This document shows, piece by piece, positions 2,294 through 6,910 of a stretch of DNA of 20,000 bases. The notes below the pieces were generated by a model. The model saw only the letters and a list, made by a program, of their open reading frames with translations. It did no database searches and had not been told where the DNA came from. Position numbers and translations under genes: made by a program. Every line of letters starts with the position of its first letter. Position 1 is the first letter of the stretch. Source of the DNA: Angustibacter luteus (GTDB lineage: Bacteria; Actinomycetota; Actinomycetes; Actinomycetales; Angustibacteraceae); contig NZ_BAABFP010000007.1 in NCBI RefSeq assembly GCF_039541115.1, positions 606,584-626,583 of the forward strand, written 5' to 3'.

Positions 2294-3757
2294 GTGACCC
2301 AGCAGGACGAGCGACGCGTCGTCGAGGCCGTACCCCAGGGCCTGTTCATCGGCGGTCAGTGGCGGCCGGCGTCCGACGGCGCCGAGCTGAAGGTGCTCGA
2401 CCCCTCCACCGAAGAGGTGCTGACCACCGTCGCCGACGCCTCGGTGGCCGACGGCCGCGAGGCGCTGGACGCTGCGGTTGCCGCGCAGGCGGGGTGGGCC
2501 GCCACGCCGCCGCGCGACCGCGGCGAGATCCTGCGCGCGGCCTACGAGAAGGTCACCGAGCGCGCGGAGGACCTCGCGCTGCTGATGACGCTCGAGATGG
2601 GCAAGCCGCTGAAGGAGGCGCTGGGCGAGATCACCTACGGCGCCGAGTTCTTCCGGTGGTTCTCCGAGGAGGCCGTGCGCATCTCCGGTCGCTGGTCGAC
2701 GGCCCCGAACGGCGCCACCCGGCTGCTCACCATGAAGCAGCCCGTGGGGCCGTGCCTGATGATCACGCCCTGGAACTTCCCGCTCGCGATGGGCACCCGC
2801 AAGATCGGCCCCGCCATCGCGGCCGGCTGCACGATGGTGGTCAAGCCGGCGTCCCAGACCCCGCTGACCATGTACGCGCTCGCCCAGATCCTCACCGAGT
2901 GCGGGCTGCCGGACGGCGTCCTCAACGTGGTGACGACGTCCCACACCGGCGACGTGATGGAGCCGCTGATCCGCGACCCCCGGCTGCGCAAGCTGACCTT
3001 CACCGGGTCCACGCCGGTCGGCCGCCGGCTGGTCGAGCAGTCGGCCGAGGGCCTGCTGCGGGTGTCGATGGAGCTCGGTGGGAACGCCCCGTTCATCGTC
3101 TTCGGCGACGCCGACCTGGACCGCGCCGTGGACGGCGCCATGCTCGCCAAGATGCGCAACATCGGCGAGGCCTGCACCGCGGCGAACCGGTTCATCGTGC
3201 ACGAGTCGGTCTCGGCCGAGTTCTCCGCCCGGCTGGCCGAGCGGATGGGCGCGCTCACCGTCGGTCGGGGGACCGAGGACGGCGTGGACGTCGGTCCGCT
3301 GATCGACGGCACCCAGCGGGACAAGGTGGCCGAGCTCGTCCAGGACGCCGTCGACCTCGGGGGCAAGGTCCTCACCGGTGGGGGAGCACTGGACGGCAAG
3401 GGCTTCTACTTCGCGCCCACCGTGCTGGGCGACGTCCCGACCCAGGCGCGGGTCTTCGGCGAGGAGATCTTCGGCCCGGTCGCGCCGATCACCACCTTCG
3501 CCACGGACGACGAGGCGCTGGCGCTGGCCAACGACACCGAGTACGGGCTGATCGCCTACGCCTTCACCCGCGACCTGGCCCGAGCCCTCGCCGTCGCCGA
3601 GGGCCTGGAGACCGGCATGGTCGGGATCAACGCGGGGGTGGTGTCCAACCCGGCGGCGCCGTTCGGCGGCGTCAAGGCCAGCGGGTTCGGTCGCGAGGGC
3701 GGCGCCGAGGGCATCGAGGAGTACCTCGAGACCAAGTACGTCGGCATCGCCCCCTGA
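2294..3757 (+). CDS. gabD: NAD(P)-dependent succinate-semialdehyde dehydrogenase
   Basis: Aldehyde dehydrogenase motifs ITPWNFP, FTGST, MELGGNAP, GEAC (catalytic Cys), EEIFGPV and PFGGVKASG. AAGGAG RBS at 2282-2287 before GTG 2294. Divergent from gabT. Confidence 0.92.
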   Translation: MTQQDERRVVEAVPQGLFIGGQWRPASDGAELKVLDPSTEEVLTTVADASVADGREALDAAVAAQAGWAATPPRDRGEILRAAYEKVTERAEDLALLMTLEMGKPLKEALGEITYGAEFFRWFSEEAVRISGRWSTAPNGATRLLTMKQPVGPCLMITPWNFPLAMGTRKIGPAIAAGCTMVVKPASQTPLTMYALAQILTECGLPDGVLNVVTTSHTGDVMEPLIRDPRLRKLTFTGSTPVGRRLVEQSAEGLLRVSMELGGNAPFIVFGDADLDRAVDGAMLAKMRNIGEACTAANRFIVHESVSAEFSARLAERMGALTVGRGTEDGVDVGPLIDGTQRDKVAELVQDAVDLGGKVLTGGGALDGKGFYFAPTVLGDVPTQARVFGEEIFGPVAPITTFATDDEALALANDTEYGLIAYAFTRDLARALAVAEGLETGMVGINAGVVSNPAAPFGGVKASGFGREGGAEGIEEYLETKYVGIAP

Positions 3758-3768
3758 CATCCCCGGCG

Positions 3769-3891
3769 TCACCCGTTCGGCCCAATCGCTCGGCGTGTCG
3801 GTGGCTGGCTGCCCGGGAAAGTCGAAGTTCCCGTGCTGGACTAGTCCGTTCGGGTGCATTCGGGTCCGATCGCACTGACCCGAACGGGTGA
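3769..3891. promoter_or_regulatory. Three related 16-bp palindromic operator-like sites resembling the BldM box TCACcCgnncGgGTGA
   Basis: TCACCCGTTCGGCCCA (3769-3784), TAGTCCGTTCGGGTGC (3842-3857) and TGACCCGAACGGGTGA (3876-3891; one mismatch to the consensus). Confidence 0.5.
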
Positions 3892-4011
3892 GATGCTCAC
3901 CCACAGGTAGTGAGTTTCGGTAACTTCCTGCGACGTGACGCTGCGTGCGGCTTCAATCGCTCACAGCGATACAGCCCGCCCGGGGCTGCCCCGCATCGCT
4001 GAGGAGTGCCG

Positions 4012-4116
4012 ATGAAGAAGAAGTCCCCTGTCAGCGCGGTCGTTCGCCTCAGTGCGGGCGTGCTCCCCGTGATCACCCTGGTGTCGGTGCTCGGCGCCGG
4101 CTCCAAGTGGTGGTGA
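4012..4116 (+). CDS. 34-aa small peptide, signal-peptide-like precursor (MKKKSPVSAVVRLSAGVLPVITLVSVLGAGSKWW)
   Basis: GAGGAG RBS at 4001-4006, 5 nt before the ATG. Basic N-terminus, hydrophobic core and GSKWW tail. Absent from the ORF track because of its size. Confidence 0.8.
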   Translation: MKKKSPVSAVVRLSAGVLPVITLVSVLGAGSKWW

Positions 4117-4175
4117 TCGCCGTGCTGACGCGCAGCGAAGACACGCAGTACCTGCCCGGTTACAAGTGGGTCTAG
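4113..4175 (+). CDS. Putative 20-aa peptide (MIAVLTRSEDTQYLPGYKWV)
   Basis: GTG start overlaps the upstream TGA (GTGA). Ends in the same G-x-K-W-x-stop pattern as the upstream peptide. Third codon positions are mostly G/C. Confidence 0.45.
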   Translation: MIAVLTRSEDTQYLPGYKWV

Positions 4176-4197
4176 GGCCTCGCGCCCGCTGACACCC

Positions 4198-6363
4198 ATG
4201 AAGCGACCCTCGCCCCTCGCGCTCTACGTCGCCTGCGTCGCCCTGCTGGGCGCGCTCGTGGCGGCGTGGAGCCTGTGGGGTGTCGGTCTCGCGGAGCTGG
4301 CCCGTACCGCCCCGAACCCGGTGTGGTTCCTGGCGGTCGGGCTGGTTCTGGGCGAGCTCATGCCGATCCCCGTGGCCCGCGGGGACGACGAGACGTCCAA
4401 CGTCACGATGTCGACCACCTTCGCCGTGGCGCTGGTGACCACCGGACCCTTCGCCCTGCTCCTGCTGGTGCACACCATGGCCGTCGCGATCGACGACCTG
4501 CGCACCCGCCGGAGCGTGGCCAAGGTGCTGTTCAACTTCGGCCAGTACGCCGTGTCGTTGGCCGCCGCCCGCGCGGCGTTCTGCGTCATCACCGGCACGA
4601 GCTTCCACGCCGGCTACACCCCGCTGGACGCCAGCGAGCTGCCCGCGGCCCTCGTCGCGGGCTTCACGTTCATCATGCTCAACAACGGTCTCGTCGCCGT
4701 CGTCGTCGCCCTGGCCACCCGCCAGCCGGTGCTGGCGATGCTGCGCGAGGACCTCGCATTCAAGCTCGAGACGTCCAGCGTGCTGCTCGGCCTGGCGCCG
4801 GTCGCCGCCGTGCTCGCCGAGATGAGCGGCTGGCTCCTACCCCTGCTCGCGCTGCCTGTCCTGGCGGTCCGCCGCTCCGCGGCGCTGGCCGTGGCCCGGC
4901 AGTCCCAGGCCCTGCGCGACGCCCTGACCGGACTGGGCAACCGCGAGCTCTTCTTCGGCCGCGCCGAGCGCATGCTCGCCGCCTACGAGCGCACCGAGAG
5001 TCCCTTCGCGGTGCTGATGATCGACCTCGACCACTTCAAGGACATCAACGACACGCTCGGCCACCAGGTCGGTGACCGGGTCATCCAGACGGTCGGTGCC
5101 CGCATCGCGCACGCCGGCGGCCCCGACGGCTGCGTCGCCCGGCTCGGTGGCGACGAGTTCGCCATCACCATCCCCGGCGTGGACGTCGCGCAGGCGAGCG
5201 CCGCCGCCGAGACGCTGCTGTCCGACATCGTCCGTCCGCTGCACGTCGGCGGCATCCGGATGGTCATCCACGCCAGCGTCGGCATCGCCATGGCCGAGCC
5301 CGGCGTCGACGTCACCACGCTGATGCAGCGGGCGGACATCGCCCTCTACGAGGCCAAGCGGGACCGCGCCCGGTGGTGCCTGTACGACGTCCAGTCCTCG
5401 ACGGCGACCCCCGAGCGCCTCGGGCTGCTCGCCGACCTGCGCGACGCGATCGACCTGCGGCAGATCTCCGTGCACTTCCAGCCGCAGGTCGCGCTCAACG
5501 GCGGCCGCGTCTTCGGCGCCGAGGCGCTCGCGCGCTGGGACCACCCCGAGCGCGGCTCGGTCGCGCCCGAGGAGTTCATCGCCCTGGCCGAGCACGCCGG
5601 GCTCATCGACCAGGTGACCGACATCGTCCTCGAGGAGTCGCTGGACGCGCTGGCCAGCTGGTCCCAGATGGGCATCGCCGCCCGCGTCTCGGTGAACCTG
5701 TCGGCCCGGCAGCTGGCCGACCTGGGGCTGCCCGAGCGGTTGCGTGACGCGTTGCGCCGGCACGGTGTCTCGCCGGGCCAGCTGACCGCGGAGGTGACCG
5801 AGGGCAGCATCATGGGCGACCCCCGGCGGGCCGCGCAGGTGCTGCACGAGCTCCGCCAGGAGGGCATCCGGATCGCCGTCGACGACTTCGGCACCGGCTA
5901 CTCCTCGCTGGCCTACCTGCAGCGCCTGGACCTCGACGAGCTGAAGATCGACCGCAGCTTCGTGCAGTCGATGGGCGCCGTCTCGCGGGACGACGTGCTC
6001 GTCCGCTCGATCATCGAGCTCGCGCACAACCTCGGCCTGTCGGTGGTCGCCGAGGGCGTCGAGACCCCGGGGCAGGTCGAACGACTGCGCGAGCTGCAGT
6101 GCGACGCCGCCCAGGGCTACCACCTCGGTCGGCCGATGGACCGCGAGATGATGACCGCCTGGCTGCGTCGCGACACCATGCTCGAGCCCCTGCGGCTGCC
6201 CGAGGAGGACCACAGCGAGGACACCCTGCACGGTCTCGTGCAGGGGCTGGCCCACCTCGAGCCGTTCGGCCCGGCCGAGGCCGTGCCCGCCGTCCCGGCG
6301 ACCGGTCGGTCCGGCAAGCCGACCCACCTGCGCGCCGTCCGGTCCGGACAGGGAACGGCGTGA
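4198..6363 (+). CDS. Membrane-anchored diguanylate cyclase/phosphodiesterase (multi-TM N-terminal domain + GGDEF + EAL)
   Basis: About 230 aa hydrophobic N-terminus. GGDEF motifs DALTGLGNR, DLDHFKDINDTLGH and RLGGDEF (GGDEF at 5146-5160). EAL at 5521-5529, followed by DDFGTGYSS, LKIDRSF, VAEGVE and QGY. Confidence 0.95.
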   Translation: MKRPSPLALYVACVALLGALVAAWSLWGVGLAELARTAPNPVWFLAVGLVLGELMPIPVARGDDETSNVTMSTTFAVALVTTGPFALLLLVHTMAVAIDDLRTRRSVAKVLFNFGQYAVSLAAARAAFCVITGTSFHAGYTPLDASELPAALVAGFTFIMLNNGLVAVVVALATRQPVLAMLREDLAFKLETSSVLLGLAPVAAVLAEMSGWLLPLLALPVLAVRRSAALAVARQSQALRDALTGLGNRELFFGRAERMLAAYERTESPFAVLMIDLDHFKDINDTLGHQVGDRVIQTVGARIAHAGGPDGCVARLGGDEFAITIPGVDVAQASAAAETLLSDIVRPLHVGGIRMVIHASVGIAMAEPGVDVTTLMQRADIALYEAKRDRARWCLYDVQSSTATPERLGLLADLRDAIDLRQISVHFQPQVALNGGRVFGAEALARWDHPERGSVAPEEFIALAEHAGLIDQVTDIVLEESLDALASWSQMGIAARVSVNLSARQLADLGLPERLRDALRRHGVSPGQLTAEVTEGSIMGDPRRAAQVLHELRQEGIRIAVDDFGTGYSSLAYLQRLDLDELKIDRSFVQSMGAVSRDDVLVRSIIELAHNLGLSVVAEGVETPGQVERLRELQCDAAQGYHLGRPMDREMMTAWLRRDTMLEPLRLPEEDHSEDTLHGLVQGLAHLEPFGPAEAVPAVPATGRSGKPTHLRAVRSGQGTA

Positions 6364-6367
6364 TCCG

Positions 6368-6910
6368 GTGCTGGTCGCCGCGCTCGTAGCGCTCGCCGTC
6401 CTGACCGTCCCGCTCAGCGGTGGTCGGTGGTCCGCGCTGGGCTCGCTCCGGTTGCGACACAGCTGGTTGCTGTGGATGGCGCTGCTCGGTCAGGTGCTGG
6501 CCCTCGAGGGGCCCGACCTGGGTGGTTGGGCCGCTCTGCTGCACGTCGGCACGTACCTGCTGGCGGGCGCCTTCGTCGTCCTCAACCGCGCCATCCCGGG
6601 CCTCTGGCTGATCGCGGCCGGCGGCTTCCTCAACGGCATCACCATCGCGCTGAACGACGGGACGCTGCCGGCGTCGGCGCACGCGCTGCGCGCCGCCGGG
6701 CTGCCGGCCGACCACCACCAGTTCGTGAACTCGGGCGTGGTCGGCGGAGCGCACCTGCCGTGGCTCGGCGACGTGTTCGCCTGGCCACAGCCGCTGCCGC
6801 TGGCCAACGTGTTCAGCGTGGGCGACGTCCTGCTGGTCGTGGGGGCGTTCTGGGCGATCCACCGGCTGGCCCGGCGCAGCCCGGCCGAGCCGCAGGTCGC
6901 CCTCGCGTGA
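6368..6910 (+). CDS. DUF5317-like integral membrane protein
   Basis: 180 aa, multi-TM. The pattern N...G..LN...I..N.G.(M/L)P...WLGD.F...NVFSVGD matches my recollection of DUF5317. Starts 4 nt after the GGDEF-EAL stop. Confidence 0.75.
   Translation: MLVAALVALAVLTVPLSGGRWSALGSLRLRHSWLLWMALLGQVLALEGPDLGGWAALLHVGTYLLAGAFVVLNRAIPGLWLIAAGGFLNGITIALNDGTLPASAHALRAAGLPADHHQFVNSGVVGGAHLPWLGDVFAWPQPLPLANVFSVGDVLLVVGAFWAIHRLARRSPAEPQVALA

Follow-up and report, generated by a model that had tools for sequence, protein, structure and literature searches.

The stretch of Angustibacter luteus DNA considered here (20,000 nucleotides, positions 606,584 to 626,583 of contig NZ_BAABFP010000007.1, hereafter the window) contains an open reading frame (ORF) of 34 codons, ORF1, just ahead of the gene for a membrane-bound enzyme of cyclic di-GMP (c-di-GMP) turnover, and on comparative evidence ORF1 is a genuine conserved gene. 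Its product is probably a missing partner of the enzyme's MASE9-like sensor domain and not a pheromone precursor. ORF1 is a new small-protein family within a known functional class, that of small membrane partners acting in trans on a sensor, and it stands in an unusual twin-ORF arrangement with a second, coupled mini-ORF (ORF2) that shares its terminal motif. The interpretation favored here, with a probability of roughly one half, is that the ORF1 peptide remains uncleaved in the membrane as a single-pass micropeptide and acts in trans on the MASE9-like domain. Control in cis by the translation of the two short ORFs, processing into a peptide signal, and partnership with the third gene of the module, which encodes a DUF5317 membrane protein, are the principal alternatives.

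Evidence that ORF1 is a gene

The letters of ORF1 are exactly as claimed in an earlier, sequence-only reading of the window, with GAGGAG-N5-ATG at the start, MKKK, a long hydrophobic region, L-G-A-G and then S-K-W-W at the end; the stop codon is TGA (4114-4116), and the 19-residue Kyte-Doolittle mean of the 34-residue product peaks at 2.09. These letters alone are no proof of a gene, because the window has a G+C content of 72.7%, chance frames this long abound in it, and many spurious ORFs of the same length stand in its reading-frame list. Comparison with other genomes, however, shows that ORF1 is more than chance, and its status as a gene is therefore settled by comparative data. The G+C content at its three codon positions (0.59, 0.50 and 0.91) follows the coding pattern of the genes around it. 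Among 48 distinct DNA copies, chosen by their motif and placed in a gap-free alignment of the 28 codons that run up to the Trp, the ratio of nonsynonymous to synonymous differences (pN/pS) is 0.25 in frame as against 1.82 and 2.73 in the other frames. Because the copies had been selected by the motif, the count was repeated without the six motif codons, and the ratio for the 56 pairs with identities of 70% or more was then 0.19 in frame as against 1.93 and 3.45, and for the 147 pairs with identities of 60% or more it was 0.39 as against 1.43 and 1.95. Within the motif codons, the first and second positions are invariant, whereas three or four different bases occur at the wobble position of the Gly and Ala codons. 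A GGAG, GAGG or AGGA lies 4-17 nt ahead of the start codon in 34 of 46 distinct copies, and most of the remaining copies have a purine-rich run nearer to it. Both the frame and the position of the stop, the two features on which the sequence-only reading had staked the gene beforehand, are conserved in orthologous loci.

A search of the source genome itself finds a single copy of ORF1. The exact peptide sequence is present in the ESM Atlas, where it falls into unnamed clusters only (score 0.88). Four metatranscriptome runs contained only 4-7% of the sampled words, a level that shows neither transcription nor its absence; short contigs from this source (167-193 nt) map to 3827-4155, which takes in the leader, ORF1 and part of ORF2, and two pieces of 31 nt also map to 4713-4743, matches that likewise permit no inference as to transcription.

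Distribution of the family

Relatives of ORF1 extend well beyond the source genome. A six-frame search with the single sequence finds full-length relatives in two further genomes (74% and 68% identical); the same search gave weak matches to 36-residue frames in genomes G004, G005 and G012 that proved on inspection not to be hydrophobic peptides and were discarded. An ORF1-like small ORF stands upstream of the sensor orthologue in six of seven genomes of the same family. A profile built from eight peptides matches 55 of 401 genomes of the order (43 of 358 good-quality genomes; 16 of 118 genera), and a profile of 33 sequences matches 25 of 401 genomes of a phylum-wide sample, other classes included, a tally to which two unpublished genomes (G417 and G634) contribute. 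Among 1.84 billion predicted proteins, 31 cluster representatives match the eight-peptide profile at E <= 0.001, with cores of 29-37 residues that all end in the G-A-G-x-K-W motif.

These relatives are called by gene callers elsewhere but carry no informative name. In the ten clusters checked, most named members are labeled 'hypothetical protein', one member of 51 residues is an 'uncharacterized membrane protein', and one oddly clustered member of 430 residues is named as a peptidase. No Pfam family matches ORF1, no NCBIfam family matches any of four ORF1-family members at E <= 1, and Rfam gives no match at E <= 1 to positions 3600-4400. Literature searches found no description of the ORF1 peptide, of DUF5317, or of a partner of MASE9. 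In genome G303 (genus g21) the ORF1 profile has five matches, in two small arrays (C14:227052-227328 and C1:4398-4837), one of which lies just upstream of a sensor and a DUF5317 gene.

Build of the ORF1 peptide

In an alignment of 33 ORF1-type sequences, to which the residue counts below refer, A29 and W33 are invariant, and conservation is at least 90% for G28, G30 and K32. The residue corresponding to R12 is Arg or Lys in 22 members, Gln in eight and another residue in three, and it is always separated from the Lys by 19 residues, with no alignment gap between. The maximum 19-residue hydropathy lies between 1.42 and 2.27 in all 33 members and reaches at least 1.6 in 32, and the N-terminus is net positive in 30. 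A basic residue, a stretch of bilayer length and a Lys-Trp pair at what would be the far interface together make up, to judge from the alignment, the build of a signal anchor. A size of 29-37 residues and one predicted membrane helix are, in addition, what characterizes small membrane partners that act in trans on sensors.

The further suggestion that L-G-A-G resembles a lipobox in which Gly replaces Cys finds no support, as no member of the alignment has a Cys in the lipobox position. The only Cys, found in one member at the variable position between G-A-G and K-W, is preceded by G-A-G, and it does not define a lipobox because no Leu, Val or Ile stands at its -3 position.

Linkage to the MASE9-like sensor

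The gene that follows encodes an enzyme in which Pfam recognizes EAL (255 bits) and GGDEF (141 bits) domains and, in the membrane portion, MASE9 at 23.2 bits, just below the cut-off of 24.3. For the same domain the scores of orthologues are 27.7, 32.3 and 35.4 bits, and the term MASE9-like is used because the window's protein falls below the cut-off while its orthologues pass. A sensor orthologue lies immediately downstream of ORF1 on the same strand in 29 of 30 loci (28 identified by tblastn, together with locus L061), and the one locus without a sensor, L049, is cut by the end of its contig. The distance from the ORF1 stop to the sensor start ranges from about 40 to about 260 nt across loci, a variability that fits a product acting in trans.

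The association survives a change of output. In six loci from another class (L086, L088-L091 and L094), an ORF1-type peptide precedes a protein that resembles the window's enzyme across the membrane domain only, and in both of those scanned with Pfam (L086 and L089) the C-terminal half consists of HisKA and HATPase_c domains. DUF5317 genes are present in all five of the five genomes of this histidine-kinase group, but on other contigs. Since the linkage to the sensor persists with a histidine-kinase output and with DUF5317 elsewhere, the peptide tracks the MASE9-like domain and neither the output domain nor, strictly, DUF5317. In the 500 nt ahead of the 30%-identical paralogous sensors of this family (10 loci) there is no small hydrophobic ORF. 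The 29 of 30 loci, the histidine-kinase loci and the peptide-less paralogues together display the evolutionary linkage expected of a small membrane partner of the sensor, and the proposal in the sequence-only reading that a small membrane protein stays uncleaved and binds the sensor domain is the best fit to this pattern and to the membrane-anchor build of the peptide, with the binding itself a matter of inference.

Two side observations concern individual loci. L086 and L089 both have a gene for serine hydroxymethyltransferase upstream, on the opposite strand. In L028 (genome G008) a sensor orthologue of 46% identity apparently lacks the first membrane helix and is preceded by a leader remnant, with neither ORF1 nor ORF2; the peptide genes and the first sensor helix may have been lost together.

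DUF5317 as the third member of the module

Only 4 nt separate the end of the sensor gene from the start of the DUF5317 gene. By hand comparison, a DUF5317 gene lies on the same contig and strand no more than 3.1 kb downstream of ORF1 in 50 of 55 ORF1-positive genomes; the five exceptions are G003, which has none in the genome, G059, where the contig measures 1.7 kb, and three genomes with weak ORF1 matches. In two loci outside the order the trio is kept, with DUF5317 divergently transcribed yet still adjacent. The AlphaFold 2 model of the protein has a predicted local distance difference test score of 80.4, and the family alignment shows a series of invariant polar residues (H59, Y63, N73, N89, N96, N121, S122, D135, S150 and D153). 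A Foldseek search of this fold against the PDB gave no match at E <= 0.001, and VIA-align against 48,161 chains gave helical-hairpin matches only, the best at Z 6.7. The Pfam family is also matched in the control genomes of Thermotoga maritima and Thermus thermophilus.

A second coupled mini-ORF

ORF2 is absent from the sequence-only reading, and 21 distinct copies were found in the present analysis. Its body is hydrophilic and not conserved, it has neither a membrane segment nor an export signal, and its conservation is concentrated in its end, P-G-Y-K-W plus one residue and the stop. The codons for the Pro and Gly of this end vary only at the wobble position in the 21 copies, and the wobble position of the Gly codon, with an entropy of 1.64 bits, uses all four bases. 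In all 20 distinct ORF1-ORF2 units an in-frame ATG or GTG lies -1 to +5 nt from the ORF1 stop, and in the window further in-frame GTG codons at 4107, 4110 and 4113 overlap the end of ORF1. Relative to ORF1, ORF2 occupies phase 2 in 15 units and phase 1 in the other five, a mixture that rules out a frameshift fusion of the two. The consistent coupling of the start codon and the mixed phases therefore identify ORF2 as an independent coupled cistron; on this comparative evidence, neither frameshifting nor the ORF1 frame itself accounts for it. Like ORF1 it represents a peptide family that is in neither Pfam nor NCBIfam.

The twin arrangement is one of several. Some lineages are without ORF2, and there ORF1 ends in G-A-G-[Y/W/F]-K-W-x. 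Other lineages have two tandem membrane peptides of the ORF1 type, and in one family of the order the whole unit of leader, ORF1 and ORF2 is tandemly doubled ahead of the sensor (L002 in G029, L039 in G052 and L046 in G072). The copies of these tandem units have diverged in amino-acid sequence and kept both terminal motifs. In L041 (G090), at about 1828-1995, there is a second leader-like stretch with an ORF that has the ORF2 motif end and no ORF1 within 150 nt upstream; it looks like a decayed second unit. The common denominator of all of these arrangements is one or more short ORFs ending in G-x-K-W-x immediately before the sensor gene. That a soluble ORF2 peptide has the end motif of ORF1 suggests that the motif is read by a common factor or site.

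Layout of the locus and its surroundings

The features of the module are listed in Table 1. ORF1 falls within a gap of 440 nt after the aldehyde dehydrogenase gene, which ends at 3757. The non-coding leader at 3929-4011 shows DNA-level conservation in 11 copies drawn from eight genomes, and its inverted repeat could be an RNA hairpin or element, or else an operator. RNAalifold places five pairs in the leader, one of them with the pair types UA (4), CG (3) and UG (3), and the word CTCAGCG recurs about 60-75 nt ahead of the ATG in distant lineages. The fold of positions 3929-4240 is not significant (z = -0.94), with 18 of 100 shuffled sequences folding equally well, and simple promoter and terminator scans found nothing.

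Table 1. Features of the ORF1 module in the window (all on the + strand)
Feature	Positions	Strand	Description	Basis
Conserved leader	3956..3988	+	Inverted repeat ATYGCT-NNN-AGCRAT (3956-3970) and a second short hairpin of variable sequence (3972-3988)	Alignment of 11 copies
Shine-Dalgarno sequence of ORF1	4001..4006	+	GAGGAG, 5 nt ahead of ATG 4012	Sequence
ORF1	4012..4116	+	Gene for a 34-residue micropeptide: basic N-terminus, about 19 hydrophobic residues, C-terminal G-A-G-x-K-W-x	Reading frame and comparative data
ORF2	4122..4175	+	Coupled second mini-ORF, 17 codons from GTG 4122, stop TAG; hydrophilic, ends P-G-Y-K-W-x	Sequence and comparison
Sensor enzyme	4198..6363	+	Membrane c-di-GMP enzyme of 721 residues: MASE9-like multi-pass N-terminal domain (about residues 1-235), GGDEF, EAL	Pfam
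DUF5317 protein	6368..6910	+	Membrane protein of 180 residues, third module member	Pfam PF17248, 88.6 bits

The genes upstream of the module vary among loci and include aldehyde dehydrogenase, arginase-family and JmjC genes. In L073-L084, metagenome-assembled genomes labeled as Actinomycetes or Nanopelagicales, genes for an aldehyde dehydrogenase, a small GAF-like protein and an arginase-family protein come before the module; in the window, the aldehyde dehydrogenase gene and, judging from the reading frame alone, an apparent aminotransferase gene do so. A tie of the module to the catabolism of amines or of gamma-aminobutyric acid, beyond shared ancestry, may exist. Downstream of DUF5317, the frames on the same strand are presumably dxr, a gene for a site-2-type metalloprotease, and ispG.

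Proposed mechanism

The topology and binding of the peptide, and its effect on the activity of the enzyme, are inferred to be as follows. ORF1, the leading cistron of the operon, would be translated from a strong ribosome-binding site of its own. Under the positive-inside rule the basic N-terminus of the peptide should face the cytoplasm, the 19 residues between the conserved basic residue and the invariant Lys-Trp would span the bilayer, and the K-W tail would come to lie at the outer interface. Within the membrane, the peptide may serve as a subunit or as an in-membrane ligand of the MASE9-like domain of the adjoining GGDEF-EAL enzyme, and so set or relay the input that controls c-di-GMP turnover, with DUF5317 as a frequent third component. 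ORF2 would be translated by reinitiation a few bases past the ORF1 stop, and its product, with the G-x-K-W end and no membrane segment, would probably address the same site or factor as ORF1. In the alignment of the sensor, E53, D99, N113, Y117 and N162 are invariant and D100, R105 and D185 nearly so, and these eight residues are candidate partners for the invariant Lys of the peptide. In the work that defined the domain, it was proposed from sequence, on the grounds of short loops and buried charged residues, that MASE9 binds a ligand within the membrane (Galperin and Chou, bioRxiv 10.1101/2021.11.05.467447).

Several observations weigh against this interpretation. ORF2 has the terminal motif without a membrane segment, something that a purely in-membrane docking does not explain, and the role of ORF2 is the weakest part of the proposal. 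Of 66 DUF5317-positive genomes, 15 have no ORF1 match at E <= 0.01, and conversely the whole genome of G003 gives no match to DUF5317 although ORF1, ORF2 and the sensor are all present, for which reason the trio is not considered obligatory. The invariant [V/L]-G-A-G would also serve as a signal-peptidase site, and ORF1 and ORF2, tightly coupled to each other and to a sensor gene without a Shine-Dalgarno sequence, would also suit control in cis. No protein in which peptide and sensor are fused was found (a 44-residue relative and 191 longer candidates, none at E <= 0.1), although this is a weak test. Prediction of a complex between ORF1 and the MASE9-like domain returned 0.04 and 0.11 as against a mark of 0.32; the peptide's own fold is uncertain in these models, and the result is counted neither way.

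Alternative explanations

The coupling just described is at the center of the first alternative, in which ORF1 and ORF2 are cis-acting leader ORFs whose translation, perhaps pausing on G-x-K-W-x at the stop, sets reinitiation on the sensor gene, the peptides themselves having no function. Conservation is indeed strongest in the last five or six codons of both ORFs, and conserved residues next to the stop, as found in arrest peptides, are present in both, with G-x-K-W lying 0-2 codons before it. The invariable proximity of an ORF2 start codon to the ORF1 stop, the sensor ATG 22 nt past the ORF2 stop with no visible Shine-Dalgarno sequence in the window, and an upstream leader that is conserved and may fold all accord with such control. 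A stalling motif has no need, however, for purifying selection on the whole of ORF1 as a basic, hydrophobic peptide with a KW end, the 22 codons outside the motif included. Further, the number of residues after the Trp varies between none and two, the distance from ORF1 to the sensor differs widely among loci, many lineages are without ORF2, and the fold of the region is not significant. Regulation of this kind by the act of translation is judged unlikely.

Whether the peptide stays in the membrane or is cut there is the issue raised by the second alternative, in which ORF1 is a precursor whose cleavage at [V/L]-G-A-G, by signal peptidase or by a different protease of the membrane, releases a signal of three to five residues, x-K-W-x, to the outside of the cell for the sensor. 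The traits of a Sec signal peptide are all in place, with a basic n-region, a hydrophobic h-region and small residues at -3 and -1, and they are invariant across the family, [V/L]-G-A-G being invariant or nearly so in the 33 sequences; K-W is kept after G-A-G in every member, ORF2 shares the G-x-K-W-x end, and the tandem duplicated copies in some genomes, up to five in G303, recall the arrays of peptide precursors. An uncleaved signal anchor fits these traits too. The hydrophobic stretch meets G-A-G without a polar c-region, and the 19 residues between the basic residues have the length of a membrane anchor. None of the transporters, peptidases or receptors found in known pheromone systems is conserved alongside, ORF2 is without an export signal, and the missing lipobox Cys argues against the signal of a lipoprotein. 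To our knowledge no Sec substrate has a cargo as small as three to five residues, the size of the putative mature part here. The pheromone with a cargo of four or five residues that the sequence-only reading had put forward is not borne out by the shared end of ORF2 or by the genes conserved nearby, among which there is none for export or processing, and release of a signal from ORF1 appears quite improbable.

A third alternative would make DUF5317, and not the sensor, the protein for which the ORF1 peptide is a partner or substrate, the three genes then encoding merely co-expressed membrane components. The downstream DUF5317 gene in 50 of the 55 ORF1-positive genomes is in keeping with this, as are the many invariant polar residues of DUF5317, which are reminiscent of an enzyme or a binding site, and a weak ORF1-like match in G258 (E = 0.00175, over the motif end only) about 0.4 kb upstream of a DUF5317 gene. 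In G003 and in a second locus of G024, however, peptide and sensor occur with no DUF5317 nearby, and in the histidine-kinase group the DUF5317 genes are on other contigs. This explanation is given little credence.

A composite of these ideas, similarly speculative, would have ORF1 and ORF2, or tandem pairs of ORF1, as twin precursors of an x-K-W-x signal, with DUF5317 trimming or handing over the C-terminal tail and the MASE9-like domain reading that tail in the membrane and passing it on to c-di-GMP turnover or kinase output. Were this long shot correct, the module would form a new kind of self-contained circuit for peptide sensing, present across several classes of Actinomycetota. Lastly, that ORF1 is a chance frame, or a hydrophobic peptide of the type I toxin kind unrelated to its neighbors, is a notion that gains something from the frequency of chance ORFs in the G+C-rich window and from the small hydrophobic peptides typical of type I toxins, but one made scarcely credible by selection specific to the frame, by a stop codon that keeps its position, and by a synteny with the sensor that is strict across classes.

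Implications

For the membrane-embedded sensors of the MASE type, the ORF1 peptide represents a testable candidate for the missing input or for a co-receptor, the more so as it stays with the MASE9-like domain through changes of output, from GGDEF-EAL to histidine kinase, and through gene rearrangements. More broadly, a widespread family of small proteins is added, and with it a handle on the control of c-di-GMP in Actinomycetota outside Streptomyces.

Relation to known systems

The sensor itself is to be compared with MASE9 proteins. The window's enzyme has, in its MASE9-like N-terminal domain followed by GGDEF and EAL, an architecture that is listed for MASE9 (Pfam PF20972) by Galperin and Chou (bioRxiv 10.1101/2021.11.05.467447), whereas the passages on MASE9 in that preprint mention no micropeptide or DUF5317 partner. 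The remaining comparisons concern the peptides.

Small precursors in which the conserved part consists of the last few C-terminal residues are familiar from the peptide pheromones of Firmicutes, among them Phr, SHP/ComS and the sex pheromones derived from signal peptides, and ORF1 has the same general design. It differs in having no linked receptor of the RRNPP type, exporter or protease, in belonging to Actinomycetota, and in that its cleavage is putative. Regulatory leader peptides with a conserved C-terminal arrest motif, such as TnaC, SecM and the Erm leaders, similarly are short ORFs ahead of a regulated gene with conservation near the stop, and ORF1 shares with this group a Trp in the motif; in contrast to them, it is conserved over its full length as a membrane-type peptide, its spacing from the regulated gene varies, and the fold of 3929-4240 gave no significant RNA switch.

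KdpF of the KdpFABC complex and CydX of cytochrome bd exemplify single-helix subunits that are encoded within operons and often missed by annotation. ORF1 resembles them as a peptide of about 30 residues encoded by a cistron within the operon of the membrane complex that it would join. These subunits, however, stabilize transporters or oxidases and not signaling proteins, share no sequence with ORF1, and have neither a conserved C-terminal K-W nor a second, soluble peptide with the same motif.

In function, ORF1 as interpreted here most resembles small single-pass partners of membrane proteins such as these two and MgrB and SafA, which act on the kinase PhoQ of Escherichia coli. MgrB and SafA have no sequence relation to ORF1, their genes are not co-transcribed ahead of the sensor, and the putative partner of ORF1, a MASE9-like domain, is multi-pass and has hardly any extracytoplasmic portion. 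They are nevertheless, like ORF1 as interpreted here, peptides of fewer than 50 residues with one membrane helix that act in trans on a membrane sensor, and two small proteins can converge on one and the same sensor, as ORF1 with ORF2 or tandem ORF1 pairs might.

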